Of a stretch of 64,000 nt of DNA, positions 9,395 through 48,293 are shown one piece after another. The notes beneath the pieces were generated by a model. The model did no database searches and was not told the origin of the DNA. It saw only the letters and a list, made by a program, of their open reading frames with translations. A program made the translations under genes and the position numbers. Each line of letters starts with the position of its first letter. Positions within the stretch are counted from its first letter, which is position 1. This stretch comes from Candidatus Woesebacteria bacterium (GTDB lineage Bacteria; Patescibacteriota; Microgenomatia; UBA8517), in the NCBI GenBank assembly GCA_016700095.1, contig CP065002.1, positions 240,463-304,462 on the forward strand, given 5' to 3'.

Positions 9395-10162
9395 ATGGCT
9401 TTTGAAAAGACGAACCAACTTGGTGTTGAGAAGCTTCTTCCTGTATTTGTTGTCATATCCGTTTTTCTTGCTTTTGCCGTAGGAGTTTTGTGGAACAAAG
9501 TTTCCTATTTGGAAAATGGTACACCAACATCAAAAACGGTTACGCCAACAGCTAACGGTGCTGCAGCAGATGCTGTCGCCAATCAACCAAAGAATGGAAA
9601 ACTCACCGAAGATCAGGCGGCAAAACTCACACCGGTAAACGACAAAGATCATGTCCGTGGAAACAAAAACGCAAAAGTATTTTTGGTTGAGTATTCCGAT
9701 TTACAATGTCCTTATTGTTCAAGTTTTCATCCCACAACTACTCAAATTCTTGAGGAATATGGCGACAAAGTAGCGCTTGTTTATCGACATTTTCCGCTTG
9801 ACCAGATTCACCCGCAGGCACGTCCGGCTGCTGTTGCTTCCGAGTGCATAGCTGATTTGGGCGGTCAAGATGCGTACTGGAAATTTTTAGATGCAGTTTT
9901 TGCCGACCAGAAAGGGTCGCTTGCTGATATGTCAAGTATTGCCGTAAAGGCAGGTGTGAGTAAGGTCGCATTCCAAACCTGTATTGATTCGGGAAAATTT
10001 GATAGCGCTGTAGAGGAGGACTACCAGTCGGGACTAACGGTTGGAATTACAGGAACTCCGGGAAGTTTAGTGGTAAACGAAAAAGGTGAAGTATGGTTGG
10101 TTCCCGGTGCTCTACCTTTTGCCCAACTTAAAACAACCATAGACGAAGCATTAGCCTCATAA
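9395..10162 (+). CDS. membrane-anchored DsbA-like thioredoxin-fold protein (CPYC active site)
   Basis: N-terminal TM helix, YSDLQCPYCSSFHP motif. Confidence 0.7.
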   Translation: MAFEKTNQLGVEKLLPVFVVISVFLAFAVGVLWNKVSYLENGTPTSKTVTPTANGAAADAVANQPKNGKLTEDQAAKLTPVNDKDHVRGNKNAKVFLVEYSDLQCPYCSSFHPTTTQILEEYGDKVALVYRHFPLDQIHPQARPAAVASECIADLGGQDAYWKFLDAVFADQKGSLADMSSIAVKAGVSKVAFQTCIDSGKFDSAVEEDYQSGLTVGITGTPGSLVVNEKGEVWLVPGALPFAQLKTTIDEALAS

Positions 10163-10434
10163 AAGAATTGAGTATTCTCGCTTGTTTACATAGCTGGGGG
10201 TTTAGTTTATGAATATATTCTGCTATAATGTCACCCTATGGCAGTTAGCGAACATAGTTGTAGGGATTTTCGAGGCTCAGTTGGTCAAAAACTTCCAAGT
10301 TGTACCGGGTGTGGTTTGAGAGTAATCTACGATACGGAAGGTGGAGCAAGGTTAGACGGAGAGTGTCCGAAATTAAATAAGAAAGAAGAAAATCAGACTC
10401 CGATTATTCCTAGAGATAGAAACCGGGGAAATGG

Positions 10435-10974
10435 CTAAACTCCCTCCAACACTTTATAAGCAACAACCGCCGCACAACCCCAAGTGTTAAATGAGATGTT
10501 TATTCCGTGCATGGGTAGTTCTACAATAATGTCGCACAGTTTTAGGACATCATTCTCAATTCCATAGCTTTCATTGCCGATAACGATAGCAACTGGGAAT
10601 TTGATGTTTTTTGTAGATAGTAGATGGTAGCTTGTAGATTGAGGAGATTGCTCAATTGCGACAATATAGTAGCCTTCCTTTTTTAGTTTTTGAACCGTTT
10701 CTATGGTTGATGCGGTTTTCTCCCATGGAACCCAGCTTTCGGTTCCCACTGCCGCTTTGTGAATACGCGAATTTGGCGGGTATTCCATATCACCTGCTAA
10801 ATACATCTTTTCTGCAGCAACTGCATCCGCCAATCTAAAAAGTGAGCCTGTATTGTAGGTGTCAATGATTCTGTCCAGTACAAAGACTATTGGATTTCTC
10901 GCTACCTTTGACAGATCTTTGTTGGTGGGATTGGAATTTCGCAAATGTTTGGCGTTTAGTTTCACAATAGACAT
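10435..10974 (-). CDS. SpoU/TrmH-family (SPOUT) RNA 2'-O-methyltransferase
   Basis: SPOUT motifs IVIGNESYGI and ELPMHG-INISFN pattern. Confidence 0.7.
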   Translation of the reverse strand: MSIVKLNAKHLRNSNPTNKDLSKVARNPIVFVLDRIIDTYNTGSLFRLADAVAAEKMYLAGDMEYPPNSRIHKAAVGTESWVPWEKTASTIETVQKLKKEGYYIVAIEQSPQSTSYHLLSTKNIKFPVAIVIGNESYGIENDVLKLCDIIVELPMHGINISFNTWGCAAVVAYKVLEGV

Positions 10975-11044
10975 GACGATAATTATATTTTACCAGTGTT
11001 AGGAGTCTTGTGTGAAGCTGTATTCGTGAACGAAAGCGGGAATA

Positions 11045-11248
11045 TTAATACATATCATCGGGATTGTAATCAAAAGTCTGACCTGGTGTAGGCGCTATCG
11101 TACAATCTCGATACCTTTCTACCCTGTAACCGTAAGGGCATTTTTTCACTCTAGGTTTTTCACTTTTAGTGTAGCAGTTTTTGAAAAATGGACATGTATC
11201 GCAATCTTTTGGCGGTAGGATGATTTCAGACGTCATGGCCACAATCAT
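11045..11248 (-). CDS. small Cys-rich hypothetical protein (6 Cys, zinc-ribbon-like)
   Basis: ORF track only; CDTCP...C...KCPYG. Confidence 0.25.
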   Translation of the reverse strand: MIVAMTSEIILPPKDCDTCPFFKNCYTKSEKPRVKKCPYGYRVERYRDCTIAPTPGQTFDYNPDDMY

Positions 11249-11478
11249 ACAACATTATAAGATTATTGCAAAGGTGTAAGGCAACAAGGTAAAAAAGCTG
11301 GTAAGATGAGGTTTGTATTCGTTTAGACTGTTAAATAGAAGCGTCGAAGAAAAATATCCAGCTTGGATTTAGCTGGCCTAAGATGGTAAAATAGCAGAGC
11401 CTTAAATTGCTTTGTAATTTATCAATTTTTAAAGTACAGGCTCTAATTTACAAAGTGAAATACAACTGAAAGTATTAA

Positions 11479-11550
11479 GGCCCTAACACAAAGTGCTACG
11501 GCCGAAAGAAATGAGGCCCTAACACAAAGTGCTACGGCCGAAAGAAATGA
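11479..11550 (+). repeat. 2 x 36-bp tandem units, each beginning with the first 7 nt of the downstream tRNA-Glu
   Basis: ggccctaacacaaagtgctacggccgaaagaaatga twice, immediately followed by ggccctatcg... of the tRNA. Confidence 0.85.
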
Positions 11551-11622
11551 GGCCCTATCGTCTAACGGCTAGGACGGCACTCTTTCAAGGTGCAAATCAG
11601 AGTTCGATTCTCTGTGGGGTCA
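11551..11622 (+). tRNA. tRNA-Glu (anticodon TTC)
   Basis: cloverleaf folded by hand: acceptor ggcccta/tggggtc, anticodon loop cTTTCaa, T-loop ttcgatt; no encoded CCA. Confidence 0.8.
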
Positions 11623-11835
11623 CTAAGATTTTCCCAAAAAATATTGTTCCTTCAAACTAATTTGAACCATATTTTAAAAAGAAGTCGTTTAAGTTCAAAT
11701 TAACTTATATGATATAGCTTCGAGCGAGTGTAAAATGAAACAGCATGATTTTTCTGAGCAATTAACTTGACTGAGAATTGTGTAGCTGGTGCAATGATTG
11801 TGGTGAAAAATATTAAAATAAACAGGTTGCTGTCA

Positions 11836-12372
11836 ATGAAATTAACTACTATTATTTTTGTTGCACTGGTTTTGGTGTGTTTGGGAATAATTACTTGGCG
11901 ACTGCAAGAAAATAGAAATACAAATAAGATTAATTCTTACGAGGAATGTGTTAAGGCAAGCAACGGTCAGGTAAATCTTATGTATCCACCGCAATGTACG
12001 ACAAAAGATGGACGCACTTTCATTGACCCCTCTGCCAAACCACTGAATTCTGTTGGTAATTTGGATGAAAAGATCTCTAAAGACATTGCACAGGGATTGT
12101 TGTTTGCCGATTTTCCCGAAATATCCAAGGGGTTGGCGGGTGGGCCACCTGCACACATGCTGTACTATTTTGAAAATAATGAAGGTTGGCAAGTCGTATA
12201 TACGACGGAAGGGAGTGGAGTAGACCAGATTTTTGAAGCATCGTGTTTCAAGGTTACACACCAGAGAGTCGTTTATCAGACGGGCAATTACAAATATGAG
12301 AATTTGTCGAGTTATATTCTCAAAGACATCGACAATCTGGATACGGAAACCTGTCGAGTTAAGGGTTGGTAA
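11836..12372 (+). CDS. hypothetical secreted/membrane-anchored protein
   Basis: ORF track 11767..12372; likely start at ATG 11836 (MKLTTIIFVALVLV signal/TM). Confidence 0.45.
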   Translation: MKLTTIIFVALVLVCLGIITWRLQENRNTNKINSYEECVKASNGQVNLMYPPQCTTKDGRTFIDPSAKPLNSVGNLDEKISKDIAQGLLFADFPEISKGLAGGPPAHMLYYFENNEGWQVVYTTEGSGVDQIFEASCFKVTHQRVVYQTGNYKYENLSSYILKDIDNLDTETCRVKGW

Positions 12373-12799
12373 GAAAGCGGCGTTTCGTGAAAAACATTTC
12401 ATGCATTAACCAACTGTGTTTATATATAACATATGTTTTTGTTGGCTAATATATTTTCAGCATTACTACTGCGATTACTATTTTTACTTCAATGACTTGG
12501 ATGATACTTGCCTAAAAATACGTGCCTGATGGTGAAAAACTATTGAATGTGATACAAATTAAACAACGGGAGGTTGCCCTCGTTTTAGTTACATGCAAAG
12601 TTGTGTATCTACGGTGGGGTTTACTAACTTGTTATTTATAAAGAAAACAAGCAGGATTTCTTGTGCCCTTTTTGTAAAAATCTTTACCCTCGCATTATTT
12701 CTACGAAGTTATAAGTCTTAATAAAAACTATGTTTATGATGCGCATCACGAGTTTGATACAAATAAATAAAATACCCACTGATTCTTACCCATGTTTTA

Positions 12800-12910
12800 T
12801 TTAAACTTCCCGAAAACCGTGGACTATTTGTCCACGGATGAAGGGAAGCGGTAAACAAACTATTCGAAGAAAACCGAGAGTTCTCAACCCTCGGTTGTTT
12901 ATTCAAACTT
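12800..12910 (+). promoter_or_regulatory. conserved roughly 112-nt structured leader element, copy 1 (second copy at 59901-60013)
   Basis: about 85 percent nucleotide identity between copies, different reading frames/strands of overlapping ORFs, internal hairpins ccgtgga..tccacgg and aaccgag..ctcggtt. Confidence 0.5.
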
Positions 12911-12994
12911 TATGGAAATCACGTATTTTTTAAGTGTTAGCGAAGCAGTGAACTAACTTTCCTTGGAGAATTATGGCATGTATGACGCGGCGGT

Positions 12995-13411
12995 TTGTCG
13001 GAAAATTTATTACAGCCAATTGTTTTATTTTATATAACTTGGCATAATACACATATGCAAAATACTGAAGTTTTGGAGAAATGTTACAAAGACATTGCAC
13101 GAATTATGCTCGAAAAGGTGGAAGAAGGTTGGAACAAAGCCTGGATTGAAGCTGATTATATAATGTCACCCCAAGGTGATGTGGATAGTTTTATCGCAAG
13201 ACAATCAAAGGAAAATGAAAATAAACTGCATGGTTTACGTGTAGATTTTGGTACAAATAGTCCTCTGAAAATTGCCTTAAACAAAATTCACACTATTGTT
13301 ATTGACAACAACGGCAATCGGTGTAAGTGGTTCAAATTTAAGTTAACCCCAGACGGCTCTTTTAATATCAATTTTGACTATGATAATAATCATAGTTTTA
13401 CTGGGAGATAA
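12995..13411 (+). CDS. hypothetical protein (first gene of a two-gene operon downstream of the conserved leader)
   Basis: ORF track; no confident family assignment. Confidence 0.45.
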   Translation: MSENLLQPIVLFYITWHNTHMQNTEVLEKCYKDIARIMLEKVEEGWNKAWIEADYIMSPQGDVDSFIARQSKENENKLHGLRVDFGTNSPLKIALNKIHTIVIDNNGNRCKWFKFKLTPDGSFNINFDYDNNHSFTGR

Positions 13412-13413
13412 TT

Positions 13414-13749
13414 ATGCAAAGAAAAATAGGCAATGGAGGAACATTTTGGGTTTCGAAAAATATAATGACGAATGAAGGGAAGAGCGTATCTTTTTACTAT
13501 GCATGGGAAAGTGCGACACCTGAGGATGCAGAGAATATTGCTCAGAAGTTTCCAAAGTATTTTGTATTGGAAAACGGAACCGACTTGTGGGTTAGGGGTG
13601 AAGCGGATGGAGTAATAACCCTTGACGAATTAAAGGAAGTAATTTCAATGGATCAAGTGGACAGCATGGTATTAATCGATGACGCAACAAGTGAAGTGAT
13701 AGCGGGGGTAAAAGACTGGGCTGATCCGAACGATCTTGAGGACTGTTAG
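13414..13749 (+). CDS. hypothetical acidic protein, start 2 nt after the preceding stop
   Basis: ORF track; translational coupling geometry. Confidence 0.45.
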   Translation: MQRKIGNGGTFWVSKNIMTNEGKSVSFYYAWESATPEDAENIAQKFPKYFVLENGTDLWVRGEADGVITLDELKEVISMDQVDSMVLIDDATSEVIAGVKDWADPNDLEDC

Positions 13750-13750
13750 G

Positions 13751-14104
13751 TTAAACTTCAGAAGGTTGATTAGTTCTTACCAAGCAAAAATAGCTATGCA
13801 GTTTTTTCTTGTAATATTCCGACATGTCTGATGCCATAACTTTCTCGATAAGACTTGTTAATCTTTTTTCAAACGCGTCTTCAACTTCAAAAAAGTGATC
13901 CTGGTTGTCGGTTTTGGGTCTGAAATCCAAAAACACACCATCTTGTCCACGGAGATACCCGATTGTATTTACCAGCGATATTAAAGTTGGCAGATAACGA
14001 GCGATTGTCTCGGGACTAACATCCGTTTTTTCGTATTTTGCCAATTGCTGATCCACCAAGCTTACCAAATCGTCAAATAGTTTTTTGTAAGTATCTTGAT
14101 CCAT
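13751..14104 (-). CDS. hypothetical protein
   Basis: ORF track. Confidence 0.4.
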   Translation of the reverse strand: MDQDTYKKLFDDLVSLVDQQLAKYEKTDVSPETIARYLPTLISLVNTIGYLRGQDGVFLDFRPKTDNQDHFFEVEDAFEKRLTSLIEKVMASDMSEYYKKKLHSYFCLVRTNQPSEV

Positions 14105-14346
14105 GAGATAAGATTACTATCACAAACGAATTATTGCAACACGTTGACGGATGTTCACAATTGCCATTTCATCCATCTTGTAGGTGTGAACAATGATGGT
14201 TCAATAACCGGATTGTTGGTATTAAGCGGAATGACAGATTGGGAAAAAACATCCTATTTCAAAAGCGAAAGCAACAAAAAAATAATGACGCTACAAGAAA
14301 GGTTTTAAATTTGTTCTATTATTTGTATAATACATATCGAGACAAT

Positions 14347-14418
14347 GGGCCCGTAGCTCAGCGGCAGAGCAACAGCCTTTTAAGCTGATGGTCACAGGTT
14401 CGATCCCTGTCGGGCTCA
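14347..14418 (+). tRNA. tRNA-Lys (anticodon TTT)
   Basis: acceptor gggcccg/cgggctc, anticodon loop cTTTTaa, T-loop ttcgatc. Confidence 0.8.
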
Positions 14419-14646
14419 CAACGTAAAAAGATAAAGGAAGCTGACAACACTAATTGCTAATAACACCAGCGGAAGTTGTAATTAAAAAGTGGCACGTTAT
14501 TAAGGCTTTTCGATTGAGATAGTGATTTGGTTCAAACACAGTGACTTTAGTCGCGCAAGTGGTAGGACATTCCGGTGTAAACCGGAACAAGTTATTAAAA
14601 TTGAAAGATATTTAAAGTAAGTATGTTTTTATTGCGGGATCGTCTT

Positions 14647-14974
14647 CCGAGCCTCCGACCTAAAGTCGAGAGCTCGAGAATACGCGACCAACTTGTTGGG
14701 TCGGTATAATAAGGGATGGGGTATTGTTATGTATTAAGTTGTATCAACGGGAGCTACTATGTGGGTTCAACAAGAAACATTTACGATAGATTGGGTAATC
14801 ACAGAAATGGGCAAGTAAAATATACAAAAAACAATAGACCGCTTAAATTAATTTTTGTAAAAGAATTTGCAAGTTACAACTTAGCTTATAAATTTGAAAT
14901 GAAGGTAAAATCTTGGAAGAAAAGATCATCAATAGAAAAGATGATTGGTAAAAGTGATAATGTATGTTTAAAAT
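14647..14974 (+). mobile_element. 328-bp insertion carrying a GIY-YIG nuclease gene, flanked by the duplicated tRNA-Gln 5' fragment tattgcgggatcgtct
   Basis: insert lies between identical 16-nt copies at 14631-14646 and 14975-14990. Confidence 0.35.
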
Positions 14975-15075
14975 ATTGCGGGATCGTCTCTGCGAAGCAC
15001 AGCGATGAAATCGCGCAATTGGTAGGACATTCCGGTGTAAACCGGAACAAGTTATTAAAATTGAAGATTAATTAA
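14716..15075 (+). CDS. small GIY-YIG nuclease family protein (UPF0213/YhbQ-like); annotated C-terminus reads through into the next repeat unit, so the true end is probably earlier
   Basis: GYCYVLSC...YYVGST..L..RL..H pattern of the GIY-YIG domain; TATAAT-like box at 14705. Confidence 0.65.
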   Translation: MGYCYVLSCINGSYYVGSTRNIYDRLGNHRNGQVKYTKNNRPLKLIFVKEFASYNLAYKFEMKVKSWKKRSSIEKMIGKSDNVCLKYCGIVSAKHSDEIAQLVGHSGVNRNKLLKLKIN

Positions 15076-15321
15076 GTAAGTATGTTTTTATTGCGGGATC
15101 GTCTCTGTATAACACAGCGACAAAGTCGCGCAAGTGGTAGGACATTCCGGTGTAAACCGGAACAAGTTATTAAAATTGAAGATTAATTAAGTAAGTATGT
15201 TTTTATTGCGGGATCGTCTCTGTATAACACAGCGACAAAGTCGCGCAAGTGGTAGGACATTCCGGTGTAAACCGGAACAAGTTATTAAAATTGAAGATTA
15301 ATTAAGTAAGTATGTTTTTAT

Positions 15322-15392
15322 TGCGGGATCGTCTAATGGTAGGACAGCGGCCTTTGGAACCGTCAATCTAGGTTCGAATCCTGGTCCCGCAG
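15322..15392 (+). tRNA. tRNA-Gln (anticodon TTG) with U1:A72 pair
   Basis: acceptor tgcggga/tcccgca (U1:A72, typical of bacterial tRNA-Gln), anticodon loop cTTTGga, T-loop ttcgaat. Confidence 0.75.
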
Positions 15393-15445
15393 CATATTGT
15401 AGAGGGTTAGTAATCTGAAGGCTTAAAACAAAATTATTATCCTAA

Positions 15446-16258
15446 CTACAAAGTTCTTCGTACAAATAAATGTCCAGTAGAAGTTGTGAAGAAAATATTA
15501 AGTTTTATTTTTGATTGTTTATAATTATTGGAATAATATTCGCCAGATTTAACAAATTCAGTCTCGTCAAGTTTTGAATTACTTCCAATAGTTTCATAAG
15601 TTACTTTTACTCCAATCTCTTCCGGTAGGGCGATGGAAACCTTACCGCTTACTGTTTCGATTTCAAATGTTTCTTTGGGAATTGAATTTGAAGAAAATGA
15701 AAAATCAGCAGAGCCGAATGTGTTATTAAATTTAAATTTTCTTAAGTTCAGATTGGTGAAAGAACTTTTAACTGATGCTTTACCTGCATAAAAATCTAAA
15801 TCAACAGGTATAGTTTGACGTCCAAACTCAATGCCATATTTTATGGAGTCAGGAGTAGAAAGAGATTCGGGTTCTCCATCATCTCCTAAATTTATTAGTA
15901 GTTTGTCGGTATTAACTTTGTTGTGGACACTCACACCAAAAGGAGATCGAACACTTTTAGTGGAAACAAAATACGTAGATTCGGAAGTATCGGTAATGTC
16001 AACAGATCCTTGCGAAACAGTGATATTATACTGCACTTCCTGTATGTTCTTATAGTCTGATTGTTTAATGAATTGAGATGTGTTGATTGGGCTAAACGTA
16101 CGATTTTCGGATATGACAAACCGTGCAGTATGGAATATGTATAAAATACGTTGTGCTTTGTAATGAATGTTTAAGAAATTTGTTGCGTATGAGTAAGTAA
16201 AAAACGCAACAAGAGAAGTAAGTAGTATTAGCACATACAACTTCTTGTTTTTATCCAT
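15446..16258 (-). CDS. hypothetical membrane-anchored secreted protein
   Basis: N-terminal TM helix. Confidence 0.45.
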   Translation of the reverse strand: MDKNKKLYVLILLTSLVAFFTYSYATNFLNIHYKAQRILYIFHTARFVISENRTFSPINTSQFIKQSDYKNIQEVQYNITVSQGSVDITDTSESTYFVSTKSVRSPFGVSVHNKVNTDKLLINLGDDGEPESLSTPDSIKYGIEFGRQTIPVDLDFYAGKASVKSSFTNLNLRKFKFNNTFGSADFSFSSNSIPKETFEIETVSGKVSIALPEEIGVKVTYETIGSNSKLDETEFVKSGEYYSNNYKQSKIKLNIFFTTSTGHLFVRRTL

Positions 16259-16511
16259 AAATTATTATCTCACGATATCACGACATTGTCATGATTATGG
16301 CTTTTCATTCTCACTAAGTCTTAAATTACTGATTCCAATCAGTAGAAATAGTTTGAATCCTCAGTGAAAGATGGATTTTTCTATCTTTGGTTGGCAGAAG
16401 TTATCACTAATTTATTCAAACTTTACTAAATCTAAGTGCTACTGGTGTGGCATCAGCGTTGCAGTGATTAACTTTTCCTTAGAAAACCATGACCTATCAG
16501 TGTATGGTTAA

Positions 16512-27019: not shown

Positions 27020-27455
27020 GGGCGCAGCCCGCAACACCCAGCTAACAACAATCAACAAACAACTTTGATAGAATAAATTAATGAGTTTCAGATTTCTGAA
27101 ATTTAAAGTTTACCAGGATGCAAAAACACTGCATTCAGAAGTTGTTATTATATCGAGAAAATTCCCAAAAGATTTCTATTATCTCAAAGATCAGTTAAGA
27201 AGATGCTCTCTTTCAGTTGTCTTAAATATTGCTGAAGGTTCGGCTAAGACTTCCGACAAAGATTTTAATAGATATATCGAAAATTCACTGGGGTCTGCAA
27301 ATGAGGCAGCTTCTGCATTAGATGTTGCTTACTCCGAAAAAATAATAGAAATACATGATTATCACACTTTGTTAAAGTTAACAGAGGAAATTGTAAATCA
27401 ATTAGGTGGTTTTTCTAAAAAGTTGAAAGTTGGTGGTTGAGTGTTGTGGGTTACG
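27020..27455 (+). other. 16S intervening sequence forming a long hairpin (gcgcagcccgcaacac / gtgttgtgggttacgc) with a protein gene in the loop
   Basis: interrupts conserved 16S sequence between gcaagtggatcgg and gctagacgcgaacggctgagtaacacg. Confidence 0.6.
27081..27440 (+). CDS. four-helix-bundle protein of the rRNA intervening-sequence family (23S rRNA IVS protein-like)
   Basis: 119 aa; LHSEVVIISRKFPKDFYYLKDQLRRCSLSVVLNIAEGSAK pattern characteristic of IVS-encoded 4HB proteins; located inside the 16S IVS. Confidence 0.7.
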   Translation: MSFRFLKFKVYQDAKTLHSEVVIISRKFPKDFYYLKDQLRRCSLSVVLNIAEGSAKTSDKDFNRYIENSLGSANEAASALDVAYSEKIIEIHDYHTLLKLTEEIVNQLGGFSKKLKVGG

Positions 27456-27583
27456 CTAGACGCGAACGGCTGAGTAACACGTAGGAATCTACCTCTTGGC
27501 GGGGAATAGCCATGGGAAACCATGGTTAATACCGCATAAGATCTTCGGATGAAAGGATGTAACTATCCACCGAGAGAGGAGCC

Positions 27584-27626
<43 letters not shown>

Positions 27627-28149
27627 TACAACGGGTAGGGGACGTGAGAGCGTGTACCCCCAGAATGGTACTGAGATACGGACCATACACCTACGGGTGG
27701 CGCAACCAGGAATCGTGCGCAATGGGCGAAAGCCTGACGCCGCGACGCCGCGTGAAGGATTAAGGCCTATGGGTTGTAAACTTCTTTTACTTAAGTGGAG
27801 ACACTTTTGGGAATAAGCACCGGCTAACTTCGTGCCAGCAGCAGCGGTAATACGAAGGGTGCAAGCATTGTCCGGATTTATTGGGCGTAAAGCGTTCCGT
27901 AGGCGCATTGGAAAGTCACATTTCAAAGACCGGGGCTCAACCTCGGAAAGGGATGTGATACTACCTTTGTTGAAATATGTAGGGGCTACTGGAACTTAAC
28001 ATGTAGGAGTGAAATCCGTTGATATGTTAAGGAACACCGAGGGCGTAGGCAGGTAGCTGGACATTATTTGACGCTGATGGACGAAAGCCAGGGTAGCGAA
28101 AGGGATTAGAGACCCCTGTAGTCCTGGCCGTAAACGATGCTCGCTAGGG

Positions 28150-28290
28150 ATGTGGTCTACAAAGCATGTATGCTTTAAGAAACAGCCAACAATTAACAAA
28201 CAACTAACAACGAATTTAAGTTGGTAGTTGAGAGTTGAGGGTTGGGTGTTGTCTACAAAATGTATACATATTTTGTAGACTGCGTTCCGT
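28150..28290 (+). other. second 16S expansion/intervening hairpin (gtctacaaa...tttgtagac) with aacaattaacaaacaac motif
   Basis: replaces the short helix between ccgtaaacgatg and gctaacgcgttaagc. Confidence 0.5.
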
Positions 28291-28338
28291 AAGCTAACGC
28301 GTTAAGCGAGCCGCCTGGGGAGTACGAGCGCAAGCTTA

Positions 28339-28370
<32 letters not shown>

Positions 28371-29375
28371 CCAGTGGAGCATGTGGTTTAATTCGAGACG
28401 AACCGAAGAACCTTACCTGGACTTGACATCCCGACGACCGTTCTAGAGATAGAATTTTCACTATGTGACGTCGGTGACAGGTGCTGCATGGCTATCGTCA
28501 GCTCGTGCCGTAGGGTGTTCCCTTCAGTGGGGTAACGAGCGCAACCCTTGCCGTATGTTAAATTGTTCATACGGGACTGGTCGCCTTTGGCGACAGGAAG
28601 CGGGGACGATGTTAAGTCAGCATGGCCCTTATGTCCAGGGCTACACACATGCTACAATGGAGCCGACAGAGGGTTGCCAAAGAGCAATCTGGAGCTAATC
28701 CCAAAAACGGCTTCTCAGTTGGGATTGAGGGCTGCAATTCGCCCTCATGAACGCGGAATTGGTAGTAATCGCAAATCAGCTAAGTTGCGGTGAATACGTT
28801 CTCGGGTCTTGTACACACCGCCCGTCAAGTCAGAGGAGTTGGGGGCACCCGAACACCGAGAGTCTCGGTGGAAGGTGAAATCAGCAACTAGGATTAAGTC
28901 GTAACAAGGTATCCGTTCTGGAAGGAGCGGATGGATCACCTCCTTTCATGGAGTTGAGGTACGAAAAGTACAATAACACCCAAGTTTTCAGTCAGCGGTT
29001 TCTTTGTCTTTTTTAAGTTTACTTAAGGAAGAATAAAAACCGAGTCCGTATGTAACAACGATAAAGTACCGCTTCCAGTCATTTTTTGAGTGAGAGTATT
29101 AATCTTCAATTTTAAAAGTTTACTTCTAACAGTTTCGGATTTATTTTCGTAAAATCTTTAACCGTAGACTGATACAACCGACTTTAGTTGGTAGAGGATG
29201 TCATTTCGAACCTTATTCCCTTTACTGTAAATTCGTGAGTTAATTACATCAAGCATAGCTTAAATGCTTGACGATATATAAACCAAATGATTAAATGAGT
29301 TATGCCAAAGAGTAGAATAGTCCGCAGTGTATCTTGTGTAAGACTTCCCAACTAGATTTTATTTAATTTATTAAT

Positions 29376-35369: not shown

Positions 35370-36743
35370 CTAGTCTTCTCGGCCGCGCCATGCGCCAAAG
35401 GCCATCCCCAAGAGGATGGCTATGGGCGCGAGTGCGCACAACCATATAAGACTTGGCCCACTGCCGCCGGTCGAGGCACTTTTTAGGGTGCCAGGGGTGG
35501 AAACCAAAGGCGGCCGGCTGGGGGTGATGCTGACGGCGGGGGTGGGAGTGAGTTTGGTATCAGCGCATTGAGCGATGAAAACTACAGCGGGGTTACCCAC
35601 TTTTCCCGAGAATCGGTTGTTTTCGCTCTCAAAAAGAGGCGATAAAAACCAATTTTGAGGGAAGCTGTCACCTCCGCGGAACGCCTGCCCCTGACCAAGG
35701 GTTGACGTAACATTTGTTACAATCACACCCTCAGGGGGCAATTCCCATGTTCCCATGTATCCACTGCCGTCGGCCGTGTGCGGAAAGCCACCGAAATAGC
35801 TTCCAACGCCGATGGTTACGGTCATGGTTTCACCATGACCAGGCGTATATGACCCGTCAGGCCACTCACAGAAGTGATACCCTCTCAGGTACCCCTTAAT
35901 GATTCCCGGCGTGGGGCTGGGGGTGTTGGTGACCCACGGCGTTGCCGTTGTCGTCGGTGTTGGTGTAACCGTGCCAGGGGTGGGGGTGAAGGGCGATGTC
36001 GGTGTTGGCGTCACGGTCAATGTCGGTGTGAACGTTGGCGTCACGGTCAATGTCGGTGTGAACGTTGGCGTCACGGTCAATGTCGGTGTGAACGTTGGCG
36101 TCACGGTCAATGTCGGTGTGAACGTTGGCGTCACGGTCAATGTCGGTGTGAACGTTGGCGTCACGGTCAATGTCGGTGTGAACGTTGGCGTCACGGTCAA
36201 TGTCGGTGTGAACGTTGGCGTCACGGTCAATGTCGGTGTGAACGTTGGCGTCACGGTCAATGTCGGTGTGAACGTTGGTGTCCATGTGGGCGTGGGTTCG
36301 GGACAGTTTCCCTGAACTACTACTTGAACGCTTCCACCTGGGTTGGGAGATGTATCCACGTGATTAAATTCACAATGGACTTCTCCGCCCGGAGGTATTT
36401 GAAATCCAAAACTGTTTTGGTATGGGTCAACTGTTCCCAATAAACCCTCAAAACCGTTCGAGCAGGAGTAAGTTATTAACTCCCATTCGTCTGGTCCCGA
36501 CCATACGCTCTGTGTATTTACGTTTACCTCCATTGTTGATGTGTTGCTATCATTGACGATTGTGACATCGTCCGTGACTTGTTCACACCAATAACTGGGT
36601 GTTGTGTGCTCTGAGCACAGTATTGCACTTATCCAGTAGTAGTTTTGGGCTTGGATATTTGTGGCACTGCCACCTAACAACATTGTTGAAAACAATAGGA
36701 TCCCGAAGATCCATTTCGTGATTTTCGCTGTCTGTTTAGACAT
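35370..36743 (-). CDS. GC-rich secreted surface protein with 9-10 perfect TPTFTPTLTV repeats and C-terminal hydrophobic anchor plus RGRED tail
   Basis: signal peptide, 30-bp perfect DNA repeats, C-terminal TM. Confidence 0.6.
   Translation of the reverse strand: MSKQTAKITKWIFGILLFSTMLLGGSATNIQAQNYYWISAILCSEHTTPSYWCEQVTDDVTIVNDSNTSTMEVNVNTQSVWSGPDEWELITYSCSNGFEGLLGTVDPYQNSFGFQIPPGGEVHCEFNHVDTSPNPGGSVQVVVQGNCPEPTPTWTPTFTPTLTVTPTFTPTLTVTPTFTPTLTVTPTFTPTLTVTPTFTPTLTVTPTFTPTLTVTPTFTPTLTVTPTFTPTLTVTPTFTPTLTVTPTPTSPFTPTPGTVTPTPTTTATPWVTNTPSPTPGIIKGYLRGYHFCEWPDGSYTPGHGETMTVTIGVGSYFGGFPHTADGSGYMGTWELPPEGVIVTNVTSTLGQGQAFRGGDSFPQNWFLSPLFESENNRFSGKVGNPAVVFIAQCADTKLTPTPAVSITPSRPPLVSTPGTLKSASTGGSGPSLIWLCALAPIAILLGMAFGAWRGRED
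35995..36290. repeat. about 10 perfect tandem copies of a 30-bp unit (gtcaatgtcggtgtgaacgttggcgtcacg) inside the surface-protein gene
   Basis: direct reading. Confidence 0.9.
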
Positions 36744-44084: not shown

Positions 44085-44308
44085 GGGCCGTTAGCTCAGT
44101 TGGATAAGCAAAGCTTGGCCACTTGATCTAACCACCTTACGGGTTGTTAGCTCAGTTGGATAAGCAAAGCTTGGCCACTTGATCTAACCACCTTACGGGT
44201 TGTTAGCTCAGTTGGATAAGCAAAGCTTGGCCACTTGATCTAACCACCTTACGGGCCGTTAGCTCAGTTGGATAAGCAAAGCTTGGCCACTTGATCTAAT
44301 CGCCTTAC
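44085..44308 (+). repeat. 4 x 56-bp tandem units, each starting with tRNA-Ala nt 1-19 (gggccgttagctcagttgg) followed by ataagcaaagcttggccacttgatctaaccaccttac
   Basis: unit starts 44085, 44141, 44197, 44253; tRNA starts 44309. Confidence 0.9.
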
Positions 44309-44385
44309 GGGCCGTTAGCTCAGTTGGCTAGAGCGCTACATTTGCAATGTAGAGGTCGTGGGTTCGAATCCCACACGGTCCACCA
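44309..44385 (+). tRNA. tRNA-Ala (anticodon TGC) with G3:U70 and encoded CCA
   Basis: acceptor gggccgt/acggtcc, anticodon loop tTTGCaa, T-loop ttcgaat, CCA present. Confidence 0.85.
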
Positions 44386-45034
44386 ATGAGTACATTGATG
44401 AACCATGTGGTTTTCGAGGAATGCAACCAAGTAGGGAAAGTGCATGGCGAATCCCACACGGTCCACTCATTAGGAATTGGGAATTAAGTAGTTAGTAGTT
44501 AGTAGATGGTAGATTGGTAATAGAAATTTGGATTTTTAACATTAGTATTTAGTTTTAAGTTTCAAGTACCAACAATTAAGAATTGCGGAATACTTGACAC
44601 TAAATACTTATTAGTAGGTAATAACAACGCAGAAAAATTTTGTTGTGAGTTGTGAGAACCGGTTAGACTTAACCAGTTTTACAGAACACACCAACAGATT
44701 TGTACTTTAACAACTAAGAGAATGAAGTCACTTTAAGTGTACTTCATGGAAAAGGCCGTGAACCATCATTTATTTGATGATTCACAACACAAAAGCAATT
44801 TTGCAAAGCATGATGCTTTGCATTGAGAAAAATCCCGTACTTGATACGGGATGAAACGCTAAGTTTAAGTTTACTTAACGCAGACAGTGGATGCCTTGGT
44901 CTAGATTACCGAAGAAGGACGTGCAAGACTGCGAAAAGCGTCGGTGAGTTGTCAAGAAACATTACAGCCGGCGATGTCCGAATGGGGAAACCCGCACTGC
45001 TTCACCGCAGTGAACTCGTGCTCCAAGGGGCACT

Positions 45035-45141
45035 CTAAACAGGTAACAATTAACTACCAACTAGAATTAGTAATTGACTTTTAACTATAAGTTAACAGTT
45101 GAAAACTCATTGGTGTGTTGATTGTTGTTTGTTTGGAGTGC
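45035..45141 (+). other. 23S intervening hairpin 1 (helix 9/10 region)
   Basis: extra sequence between ggggcactc and ggagtgcc relative to conserved 23S; aacaattaac...gttgattgttg arms. Confidence 0.5.
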
Positions 45142-45254
45142 CTATTAAGGCGCGTAGAGGGAACCGCCCGAACTGAAACATCTAAGTAGGGCGAGGAAGA
45201 GAAATCAACGAGATTGCCTAAGTAGCGGCGAGCGAAACGGCAAGAGCCCAAAGG

Positions 45255-45355
45255 TGTGCGTAGCACACAACAGTTAACAATTAACATTCAACTACCAACT
45301 TTAAATTAAAGTGTTGGCAATTGATTGTTGTAAGTTGAAAGTTGTGTGCTATGCG
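45255..45355 (+). other. 23S intervening hairpin 2
   Basis: cacaacagttaacaattaac ... gttgtaagttgaaagttgtgtg arms. Confidence 0.45.
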
Positions 45356-45652
45356 CACCGGTTGTGGGACCGCAACGTGGTAGTTTTTTTGATAGCAGAA
45401 TGACATGGAATAGTCAGCCATAGAACGTGATAGACGTGTATGCGAAATCAAAAGGACGCCTAGCGGTATCCCGAGTACGACGATGCATCTACATCGTCGG
45501 AATCTGGGGGAACCATCCTCCAAGGCTAAATATGATCTAGAACCGATAGTGGACAAGTACCGTGAGGGAAAGGTGAAAAGAAGGGCGGAACGCCCAGTGA
45601 AATAGAACCTGAAACTGTTTGCGAACAATCCGATAGAGCCAGTGCATAGCAC

Positions 45653-45742
45653 TGAACTATTAACTTCCAACACACAACAATTGACATTTGGTTAATTGTT
45701 GGGAGCTTGTATAGAAGCGTGTTGATTTGTTGATGGTTCCGC
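45653..45742 (+). other. 23S intervening hairpin 3 (helix 25 region, a classical IVS site)
   Basis: aacacacaacaattgac ... gcgtgttgatttgttgatgg arms. Confidence 0.5.
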
Positions 45743-46369
45743 GCTGTGCGCGGGTAATATCGTGCCTATTGAAGAATGAGCCAGTGAGTTTTCGTGTTTT
45801 TTAAGTTTAAGCCGTAATTACGGCGAAGGCGTAGGGAAACCAAGTGTGATAAGCGCGAATAAAAAAACGCGGAAGACCCGAAACCAGGTGAGCTATCCAT
45901 GAGCAGGGTGAAGCCCATAGAAATATGGTGTGGAAGCCCGAACTCGTATCAGATGCAATTGATTGGGATGACTTGTGGATAGGGGTAATATGCTAATCGT
46001 ACCTGGAGATAGCTGGTTCTCCCCGAAAGGTGTTTAGGCACCGTGGCATCGAAAAACTACAGGGTGGTAGAGCTACTGAATGGGATAATGAGGGTAATCT
46101 GAGTTATCTCAACCAAACTCCGAATAACTTGTAGTATGCGTTGCTAGACAGCCACACGGGGCTAAGCTCGTGTGACAAAAGGGAAACAACCCGGACTCTC
46201 GGCTAAGGTCTCTAATGTATCTTAAGTTTTTAAGGAAGTTTTTTATCATAGACAGCTAGGAGGTTGGCTTAGAAGCAGCCATCCTTTAAAGAAAGCGTAA
46301 CAGCTCACTAGTCGATGATAAGAAGCGCCGAAGATGTATCGAGGATTAAAGATACTACCGAAGCTAGAG

Positions 46370-46462
46370 GTGTCGTGCTTTGCACGCAACAACCAACAAA
46401 AACAGCCAACAGTCAACAATTAAGTTGGAAATTGGAAGTTGATTGCTGCGTGCAGAGTGCGG
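46370..46462 (+). other. 23S intervening hairpin 4 (helix 45 region, a classical IVS site)
   Basis: gcacgcaacaaccaacaaaaacagccaac ... ggaagttgattgctgcgtgc arms. Confidence 0.5.
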
Positions 46463-48293
46463 CGCGGTAGGGGAGCGTTCCAAGGGCTTTGAAGGTGTGC
46501 TGTAAGGCATGCTGGAGCGCTTGGAAGTGAGAATGCTGGCATAAGTAGCTTACAAGCTAGGTGAGAATCCTAGCCGCCGAATGTCCAAGGTTTCCGTCGC
46601 GAGGATCGTCCCCGACGGGTTAGTCGGCTCCTAAGGCGAGGCCATAAAGGCGTAGTCGATGGACAACTAGTTAATATTCTAGTACTTTTCTTGTGTTGTT
46701 TGACCTGGGGATCAACTGGATTGGAGGACCGAAGCCGGTTCGCGAAGTCCGGTGCAAGCTGTAAGGTAGTTCATATTGGAAAATCCGTATGAATGATTAA
46801 TCGAGCAGTTATGCAGAGTCTGGTGAGAGCCGGACGATTTTGAATAATTCAATCTACCAGAAACAATTCGCAGTTAGACACAAGGAGAGCTGTACCGCAA
46901 ACCAACACAGGTGGACTGGTCGAGAAGACTAAGGCGAGCGAGAGAAGGGGGCTCAAGGAACTCGGCAAAAAAACTACCCGTAACTTCGGGAGATGGGTTG
47001 CCCCAATTCTATTTTATTATTGGGGTCGCAGCGAAAGTTTGTTAATCGACTGTTTACCAAAAACACAGGTCCGTGCAAACTCGTAAGAGGACGTATACGG
47101 GCTGACGCCTGCCCAGTGCCGGTAAGTTAAACGGCGGGGTGCCCCGAGCTTGTCTCGGGATGCTCCAAAGCGAAGCTCCGGTAAACGGCAGCAGTAACTA
47201 TAACTGTTCTACGGTAGCGAAATTCCTTGTCGTGTAAGTTACGACCCGCACGAAAGGCGTAACGAGTTAACAACTGTCTCGAGCCTCTACTCGGCGAAAT
47301 TGCGATGGCTGTGAAGACGCGGCCTACTTCCACCAGGACAAGAAGACCCCGTGGAGCTTTACTATAGCTTGACATTGATATGTGCATTTTAATTGTCTAG
47401 TGTAGGAGGGAGTTCCGACCTTGTGTCGGAACAACAATGTAACACCTCTCTTTGAAGTGTGGCATATCTTACTTACGTCGCCTGGAAACGGCGACAGGGA
47501 CAGTGTTAGGTGGGTAGTTTGTCTGGGGCGGATCCCTGCCAAAGTGTAACGCAGGGGTACAAAGGTTAGCTTGGCACGGATGGACATCGTGCTGTAAGTA
47601 TAAAGGCATAAGCTAGCTTGACTGCGACAGTGACGGCTGGAGCAGGTGCGAAAGCAGGTCTTAGTGATCCTCCGATCCACCATGGGTGTGGACGGAGCTT
47701 ATCGGATAAAAGCTACCCCGGGGATAACAGAGTGGTCGCACCCGAGCGTCCTTAGCGACGGTGCGGTTCGCTACCTCGATGTCGGCTCAAGGTATCCTGG
47801 GGCTGGAGAAGGTCCCAAGGGTTGGTCTGTTCGCCCATTAAAACCTTACGCGAGCTGGGTTCAAACCGTCGTAAGACAGGTTGGACTGTATCCGGTGGGA
47901 GCGTTAGAATCTTGAGGAGAGCTCACCTCAGTACGAGAGGACCAGGTGGGGGGAATCCCTAGTGTGCCGGTTGTGGCGTCAGCTGCAAAGCCGGGTAGCT
48001 ACATTCCTTGTTGGATAACCGCTGAAAGCATCTTAAGTGGGAAGCCCACTCCAAGATGAGGATTCTTTTAGACTCCTGGTAGAACACCAGGTAAACGACA
48101 GGCAGTGGAAGCCCCGTGAGGGGTTAAGCTAACCTGAAGCGAATCAGTCGAAAAACTTAAACTAACGTTTCTCTCAGTGTAAAGCATTGGGCTTTACACA
48201 ACAAATATAGGGTCTTTAGAAAGATATTTGGAAGCCATTTCCATGAGTACACTTAAAGTCACTTCATCTCTTAGTAATTTTTCAGGATAATGT

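Follow-up and report, generated by a model that had tools for sequence, protein, structure and literature searches.

To our knowledge, tRNA genes, the classic targets of mobile DNA, are occupied either at their 3′ ends by elements that carry integrases or by introns. Two further kinds of described repeat resemble the locus examined here. REP/BIME elements are short imperfect intergenic hairpins, often in tandem, whose structure is more conserved than their loop sequence; they are dispersed genome-wide and are unrelated to the neighbouring gene. ToxI-type type III antitoxins consist of tandem 36-nt structured repeats. The phage GIY-YIG endonuclease SegB cleaves within tRNA genes and so drives a tandem amplification that depends on recombination (PMC13096335). 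Partial tRNA genes have known sources in integrative elements and CRISPR spacers (PMC9897764), the integrative elements leaving them at att sites (Williams 2002, as cited in PMC9897764). [quoted passage not shown]

In the window (the whole 64,000-nt stretch of DNA that was analysed), the genes for tRNA-Glu, tRNA-Gln and one tRNA-Ala are each directly preceded by tandem units that begin with the first bases of that same tRNA (Table 1). The likeness to SegB, which is encoded in the tRNA clusters of T-even phages, lies in a GIY-YIG nuclease gene among tRNA genes and in the tandem amplification of segments with tRNA sequence, at unstable copy number. However, SegB is free-standing, has a DNA-binding domain, lies between genes and multiplies complete tRNA genes along with its own, whereas the window encodes a catalytic domain of ~90 aa alone, presumed to cleave, in an ORF fused to a tRNA; only 7–20 nt of the tRNA 5′ end are repeated, and the units are hairpins. 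Remnants of att sites are likewise direct repeats of part of a tRNA gene beside a retained intact gene, but they are usually 3′ parts, lie kilobases from the intact gene and have an integrase between, whereas the tandem repeats of the window copy the 5′ end, at a spacing of 36–115 nt. We rejected an att-site remnant for the Glu units, which are a 5′ fragment at 36-nt spacing with no integrase seen among the ORFs listed at 9500–16500, only some of which were Pfam-scanned. The inserted element of the archaeal model also leaves a 5′ tRNA fragment upstream of an intact or reconstituted gene, but it is a recombinase element in archaea and lacks tandem hairpin units.

The units share with REP/BIME elements their short, imperfect, intergenic and tandem hairpins and a structure more conserved than the loop, but they were found only before the cognate tRNA and start with its first bases. 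With ToxI they share tandem 36-nt structured repeats; the window array nevertheless has no adjoining toxin gene or terminator, and its units are tRNA-derived and abut the tRNA. A type III toxin–antitoxin system (ToxIN-like) was rejected because the tRNA follows the array, no terminator was found and the neighbouring ORFs that were scanned are without Pfam match, and a CRISPR array because the Glu units stand head to tail with no unique spacers. The window ORF and its tRNA-fused homologs belong to the UPF0213/COG2827 family of small GIY-YIG proteins (PDB 1ZG2, 1YWL), which have no DNA-binding domain and no demonstrated site-specific activity. Our literature search turned up no paper that links UPF0213 to tRNA or assigns it a function, and a search on GIY-YIG/UPF0213 and tRNA genes in bacteria and CPR found no description of tRNA-fused cassettes or of tandem tRNA-5′-fragment leader hairpins.

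Table 1. Positions of the tRNA-linked repeat units, the nuclease cassette and associated features in the window.
Feature	Position	Strand	Basis or remark
Candidate −10 box TAAAAT	11387..11392	+	Read from sequence, weak candidate; upstream of entire Glu leader
Third, degenerate Glu unit GGCTCTAATTTACAAAGTGAAATACAACTGAAAGTATTAA	11439..11478	+	Complement arm lost
Glu unit 1	11479..11514	+	Hairpin 11479–11503 (GGCC.TA.CAC/GTG.TA.GGCC) plus 11-nt spacer GAAAGAAATGA
Glu unit 2	11515..11550	+	Identical to Glu unit 1
tRNA-Glu(UUC)	11551..11623	+	nt 1–7, GGCCCTA, are the start of each Glu unit
tRNA-Lys(UUU), no array	14347..14419	+	Middle gene of ancestral Glu-Lys-Gln cluster
Diverged partial Gln unit	14535..14632	+	Read from sequence; upstream of nuclease cassette
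Orphan tRNA-Gln nt 1–13 copy (TGCGGGATCGTCT)	14633..14645	+	Left junction of cassette
Two-hairpin cassette 5′ UTR, 70 nt	14646..14715	+	TCCGAG...TCGAGAATAC...GGTCGGTATAAT; no Rfam match
GIY-YIG (UPF0213-type) ORF	14716..15075	+	Pfam PF01541, E = 9.5e-17; PDB 1ZG2, 1YWL
Three 115-nt Gln units	14977..15321	+	Share tRNA-Gln nt 1–13
tRNA-Gln(UUG)	15322..15393	+	tRNA search
Four 56-nt Ala units	44085..44308	+	tRNA-Ala nt 1–19, apical AAGCAAAGCTT hairpin, imperfect fragment complement
tRNA-Ala(UGC)	44309..44385	+	Upstream of 23S rRNA
Copy of last 19 nt of tRNA-Ala body (CGAATCCCACACGGTCCAC)	44448..44466	+	63 nt downstream of gene

The initial annotation described two head-to-tail 36-bp units that open with the first 7 nt of tRNA-Glu and are followed immediately by the tRNA, which begins ggcccta. 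Both statements are exact: two identical units, each GGCCCTAACACAAAGTGCTACGGCCGAAAGAAATGA, fill 11479–11550, and tRNA-Glu(ttc) starts at the next nucleotide (ARAGORN and Rfam; 56.4 bits). TRF reports 11478–11557 with a period of 36, 2.2 copies and 100% matches, and the 25-nt core of the unit has a single locus in the window at ≤3 mismatches, with 0 expected from shuffles. The coordinates held for these exact units, but the start of the array did not. A degenerate third unit matches the 36-nt unit at 28/36 positions (z = 6.3 vs shuffles; about seventh among the high-scoring sites that do not overlap, over ~128,000 start positions on both strands), so the array begins 40 nt upstream of 11479. 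A fourth unit at 11398–11438 was unsupported and was discarded.

A −10-like hexamer that resembles TAAAAT or TAGAAT lies 8–17 nt before the first unit in most other tRNA-Glu loci. The TAAAAT upstream of the window array is spaced in a way that fits poorly, and the promoter scan called no site there. The same scan called no promoter-like site within the Glu or Ala units; multiplication of a promoter by tandem duplication was rejected because no sigma-70-like site (−35/−10) lies inside them and because the −10 boxes of other loci stand ahead of the first unit. For the Glu units, Rfam gave no match except tRNA, even at E up to 5. No terminator was found after the array and no ORF within it; the nearest nuclease gene is 3.1 kb distant. 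Immediately downstream, tRNA-Glu and tRNA-Lys are separated by 2.7 kb (11624–14346), vs 1–4 nt in a related locus, L090. The tRNA cluster appears to have received an insertion here; two ORFs of this interval were scanned and had no Pfam match.

Folding shows each Glu unit to be an imperfect hairpin, in which GGCCCTA pairs with TAcGGCC, followed by an 11-nt purine-rich spacer and then directly by the next unit or tRNA-Glu (−9.5 kcal/mol, z = −2.6, structure ((((.((.(((...))).)).))))). In other metagenomic contigs, tRNA-Glu is likewise immediately preceded by homologous units, single or in tandem, and the spacers follow the pattern GARnGnARnGA over 11 nt (GAAAGAAATGA in the window; GAGTGAAGCGA, GAACGTAGTGA and GAATGCAGTGA elsewhere). 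One such locus, L090, was reached by synteny of the TrmH neighbour protein, independently of any DNA pattern. The nearest relatives of this protein are ~70–75% identical (best non-self match, 75%), and the tRNA-Glu leader of L090 holds two units of like design, GGCCCTA..gtgctatGGCCgagtgaagcga running straight into a second GGCCCTA, at the head of a compact tRNA-Glu/Lys/Gln cluster. In a further relative group (L087/L088/L089) the 17-nt leader is preceded by a plain TAAAAT promoter and holds no unit, so the hairpin module is not universal.

A gapped pattern scan of metagenomes yielded tRNA-Glu leaders with 1–3 units: three in L132, two plus one in L155, two in L108 and one each in L139, L126 and L153. 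The copied fragment is 8–14 nt long in eight loci (L102, L103, L104, L110, L116, L120, L136 and L152). The pattern required a downstream GGCC, which biases its matches towards the outer GGCC:GGCC stem; the extended pairing (ATCGT/ACGAT, ATCGCG/CGCGAT) was not imposed by it. Most of the 66 matches were coding sequence or chance and were set aside, as were the match in L148, which resembles a eukaryotic satellite repeat, and the L095 group of high-GC leaders, where the hairpin was unconvincing. The filler had at first been regarded as locus-specific. This view does not survive the comparison, since the Glu filler is conserved before tRNA-Glu in L090 and in the six loci just counted (L132, L155, L108, L139, L126 and L153).

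In 428 kb searched, a covariance model of the 7-nt type (R1), whose units open with GGCCCYA and pair it with a downstream TAnGGCC, matched only tRNA-Glu leaders and revealed a new third unit in L132, whose outer pair is preserved by a double change (AGCC..GGCT). The window units score only 24.2 bits (E = 0.017) because the inner stem of their hairpin is reduced to 3 bp. The unit alignment was fitted to R1, so its pairing figures lean towards structure: standard pairs make up 86.4% of pair cells, vs 74.3 ± 2.0 in shuffles and 29–45% with slid partners, and both-sided (compensatory) change occurs at 8 of the 13 pairs. G-U and A-C cells are balanced (7 vs 8), and wobble asymmetry thus does not separate an RNA-level from a DNA-level hairpin. 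Since the decayed third unit of the window is without a hairpin, any selection on the hairpin must be weak or limited to the proximal units. In L155, two units of the 7-nt type are followed by one of a 13-nt type with similar loops, and these neighbours tie the boundary of the Glu units (nt 7/8) to that of the nuclease cassettes described below (nt 13/14).

The initial annotation also recognized arrays of the same architecture at three of the six window tRNAs, which our analysis bears out: 2 × 36 nt at Glu, 3 × 115 nt at Gln and 4 × 56 nt at Ala, with no upstream array in the window at tRNA-Lys, tRNA-Ile or tRNA-Ala(cgc). Its description of the unit as a tRNA 5′ fragment plus filler was right about the fragment and incomplete about the filler, which in all three arrays contains an imperfect reverse complement of that fragment and so makes each unit a hairpin. 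Glu, Gln and Ala units thus share one fold rule: tRNA 5′ fragment, apical loop, imperfect complement and spacer. The Gln unit comprises tRNA nt 1–13, a hairpin, TGGTAGGACA (a copy of the D-loop), a second hairpin and an AT-rich tail, and its nt 1–12 pair with ...GAC..GUC.CGCA (z = −3.6). The second and third units do not differ, and unit 1 matches them at 107/115 positions; in the diverged partial unit the hairpin is preserved by compensatory changes (gtgac/gtcgc vs gcgac/gtcgc). The Ala unit folds over its whole length: nt 1–19 pair with the 3′ portion of the filler, and AAGC-AAA-GCTT forms the tip (z = −2.4).

In the window Ala units, the D-loop fragment is followed by a 14-mer, AGCAAAGCTTGGCC (44107–44288). 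Among 157 loci compared, this 14-mer occurs elsewhere only in L007, a Microgenomatus MAG, where it is found twice within one tRNA-Gln 5′-fragment unit (10282–10318). Its presence in both Ala and Gln units indicates that the fillers are neither random nor, as had been supposed for Ala too, locus-specific. A 3′ remnant similar to the one downstream of the window tRNA-Ala follows the tRNA-Ala of L071, and the two copies point to partial duplications at both ends of tRNA genes.

It had been asked from the outset whether a 7-nt match upstream of a tRNA might be common by chance. Across 57 tRNAs from loci that were not selected for the pattern, a tRNA prefix of at least 7 nt recurs within 250 nt upstream of 12 and downstream of none (0/57), where a random 7-mer would be expected in ~1.5% of such stretches and in ~0.3% within 40 nt. 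Three of the four largest non-coding arrays of the window sit exactly on tRNA 5′ ends.

The only GIY-YIG gene in the window, which the initial annotation missed, sits between the diverged partial Gln unit and the Gln array. It is without its usual stop, normally supplied by tRNA nt 13–15, and runs 28 codons into the first Gln unit. All 11 of the closest GIY-YIG homologs examined are fused to tRNA genes, either tRNA-Gln (L001, L002, L007–L010 and L012) or tRNA-Glu (L011, L013 and L015; L011 is from another Woesebacteria MAG). The MAGs that carry these homologs are labelled Woykebacteria, Curtissbacteria, Microgenomatus, Woesebacteria, Patescibacteria, Omnitrophota, Gammaproteobacteria and Pseudomonadales, and one homolog comes from an unbinned metagenome contig. 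In seven loci the ORF abuts the tRNA: its end (...YCGIV or ...GPIV) is encoded by tRNA nt 1–13 and its stop is the tRNA's own TAA or TAG. Distant members of the family (35–45% identity; Actinomycetota, Bacteroidota and Chloroflexota) are not adjacent to tRNAs.

The fused gene has a recurrent left side. In at least 8 of the 11 homologs, the cassette is preceded by a copy of the first 12–13 nt of the tRNA (7 nt in L013); in five loci an exact 12–13-nt copy lies 345–370 nt upstream, at the usual spacing from a −10 box. The two-hairpin 5′ UTR is an architecture common to 11 loci, with covarying stems, and ends in a copy of the D-loop (TAATGGT); in L011 it pairs the tRNA fragment with a downstream complement (z = −2.2). 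The junction after tRNA nt 12–13 is present at the window Gln locus, where the boundary of the array is the insertion point of the cassette. The Glu units end at nt 7, and only the L013 cassette has a 7-nt orphan fragment. GIY-YIG genes lie within the Glu-Lys-Gln cluster also in L103, L104/L150 and L155, and the compactness of this cluster in L090 indicates that the window nuclease gene shares an ancestral locus with the Glu array.

Four comparison loci carry further features at such genes. In L015 the whole cassette is present in tandem, and a run of N (10287–10385) falls exactly inside the duplication; it is either a database mask or a repeat that the assembler was unable to resolve. A large serine recombinase gene (L001, 10469–11797; Woykebacteria) lies directly downstream of the cassette-bearing tRNA-Gln. 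In L044 (9683–10275) and L048 (9895–10750), one a MAG labelled deltaproteobacterial and one an SR1 MAG, GIY-YIG genes are flanked by pseudo-tRNA units of tRNA-Asp, tRNA-Leu and tRNA-Met; these units have a tight loop of 3–6 nt where the anticodon loop would be.

We interpret the arrays as partial duplications of tRNA 5′ ends embedded in the leader, which break repair at tRNA genes targeted by a nuclease would have both created and multiplied and which their hairpins would keep harmless, and give this reading a probability of about one half. The 36-nt unit would be a copy of a conserved tRNA-Glu leader hairpin module, composed of the acceptor strand (nt 1–7), its imperfect complement and a spacer. 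In a first step, a tRNA gene would be broken near its 5′ end and repair would regenerate an intact gene downstream of an orphan 5′ fragment; only repair products with an intact gene would survive, which would place orphan 5′ fragments upstream. The breaks would probably be made by small UPF0213-type GIY-YIG nucleases encoded inside tRNA-Gln and tRNA-Glu genes, with cassette sites at nt 13/14 and in one case nt 7/8, and would recur near helix ends in the 5′ part of the Glu and Gln (and Ala) tRNA genes. SegB serves as the precedent for such cuts and the amplification that follows. In a third step, unequal recombination or slippage would change the number of units, and such change is what we see as two identical copies beside a decayed upstream copy at the Glu array. 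The array would be transcribed within the pre-tRNA leader and removed by RNase P, in line with the lack of promoter calls inside the units and the −10-like box ahead of the first unit in most loci. An acceptor-strand copy left unpaired in the leader could, during folding, compete with the genuine 5′ end; the complement arm may have been retained because it locks the orphan copy in a local hairpin and prevents mispairing with the real tRNA.

The repeats, the conserved and covarying hairpin, its restriction to tRNA-Glu leaders, the common fold rule and the fusion of nuclease and tRNA genes are observed; we infer that the nuclease is the cause, that the units are transcribed and processed, and that the hairpin insulates. 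The Glu units are linked to the nuclease by architecture and not by sequence, and against the link stand the lack of a nuclease gene at the Glu array itself, the difference between the Glu boundary at nt 7/8 and the usual cassette boundary at nt 13/14, and the lack of a DNA-binding domain in UPF0213 proteins. The body of the window cassette has no significant similarity to the Gln unit filler, local alignment of cassette ends with Gln unit fillers, in the window and in L002, did no better than shuffles, and between cassette UTRs and the 13-nt-type Glu units the resemblance is at the level of motifs only (AGTGC.ACGAT). We set aside the view of the units as internally deleted cassettes, to which their resemblance is architectural only. 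Overall, we rate the arrays as mobile-element or nuclease-associated partial tRNA duplication, of which the Glu array is the smallest and most decayed example in the window.

A bolder version of this reading, which we hold only tentatively, makes the arrays the non-autonomous members, devoid of an ORF, of a class of selfish elements that has yet to be described and that homes into tRNA genes. The autonomous form would be the cassette of ~335 nt: a two-hairpin UTR, a 90-aa GIY-YIG ORF and a replacement for tRNA nt 1–13, which would encode the last residues of the ORF and bring the tRNA's TAA or TAG as its stop. Such a cassette would land at tRNA helix ends (nt 7/8 or 13/14), use the tRNA promoter and rebuild the gene. 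Repeated invasion and decay would pile up hairpin units in pre-tRNA leaders, where they might be co-opted for tRNA maturation.

The conservation of the hairpin, with compensatory changes across lineages, could also be the mark of a functional cis-acting element in the leader. The complement would have two possible partners, the upstream copy and the 5′ end of the tRNA itself, and its choice would switch or time RNase P processing or the output of tRNA-Glu, which the duplications would only tune. The constant spacer length of 11 nt and its purine pattern agree with such a role, as does the retention of at least two diverged units in several lineages (L090, L132 and L108); in a fold of two units, the fragment of the second unit is taken up by the complement of the first, which makes the alternative pairings energetically accessible. 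We nevertheless consider this explanation unlikely: the L087/L088/L089 group has no unit in its 17-nt leader behind a plain promoter, the distal window unit has decayed, the window hairpin is short of most of its inner stem and weak against the model, and no ligand or partner is apparent.

Ordinary slippage or unequal crossing-over would dispense with the nuclease altogether. Acting in a leader that had inherited GGCCCTA or its complement, it would make the overlap with the tRNA end no more than a sign of where neutral duplications are tolerated. The Glu copies are 100% identical and flanked by a direct repeat of 7–8 nt, as slippage predicts, and a duplication across a gene end always keeps one intact copy. 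The window offers parallels in the partial 3′ duplicate after tRNA-Ala and in another tandem array at an ORF 3′ end (278–640), in which a 53-nt unit repeated 6.8 times starts inside the end of the ORF (...KPKLFMWKL...) and each unit repeats the last codons, a tandem duplication across the gene end. Slippage accounts for how one copy became two; it does not account for the recurrence at tRNA 5′ ends, the conservation across genomes or the coincidence with the cassette junction. The position of three of the four largest non-coding arrays, the Glu unit found in other genomes, fragment boundaries that fall at tRNA helix ends (nt 7/8 and 13/14), the Gln array boundary at the insertion point of the cassette and a filler motif common to different tRNAs in different genera all speak against it, and as the sole origin of the arrays we find it doubtful.

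It is improbable that the units are processed into trans-acting small RNAs, be it a type III antitoxin, a decoy for a tRNA enzyme or a regulator resembling a tRNA fragment. The repeats are tandem and structured, their length of 36 nt equals that of ToxI and they mimic the acceptor stem, but no toxin gene adjoins the array, the downstream ORFs that were scanned are without Pfam match, neither a terminator after the array nor an Rfam match was found, and the units always lie directly before the cognate tRNA. An assembly artefact, conceivable in a metagenome-assembled genome, is the least credible source of the duplicated Glu unit: assemblers tend to collapse repeats and not to create them, the 72-nt repeat is below sequencing read length, and independent assemblies from other samples have the same architecture.

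If break repair at nuclease-targeted genes is indeed the origin of the arrays, this would be a different way of occupying a tRNA gene, by a tiny nuclease gene that sits in the 5′ part and carries its own replacement 5′ end. The cassette would borrow the promoter and the stop codon of the tRNA and leave behind hairpin 'scars' that multiply in the leader. Confirmation would give a function to the widespread and uncharacterised UPF0213 proteins, would account for odd tRNA-like fragments that confuse annotation in CPR genomes, and would provide a cellular counterpart to the SegB-driven amplification of phage tRNA loci. The leader hairpins could, in addition, add a layer of control over tRNA maturation in bacteria with single-copy tRNA genes.

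The remaining observations concern the window at large. A 30-nt unit is repeated 9.3 times at 36004–36282 with 99% identity; its period is a multiple of three, and the array may therefore be coding. The window has a GC content of 39%, and its rRNA genes are unlinked, the 16S gene (27394–28946) lying 16 kb from the 23S gene. The latter (44863–48164) is 3302 nt long vs a model of 2925 positions, and thus holds ~380 nt of extra sequence, as has been reported for CPR rRNA genes (PMC11270868).
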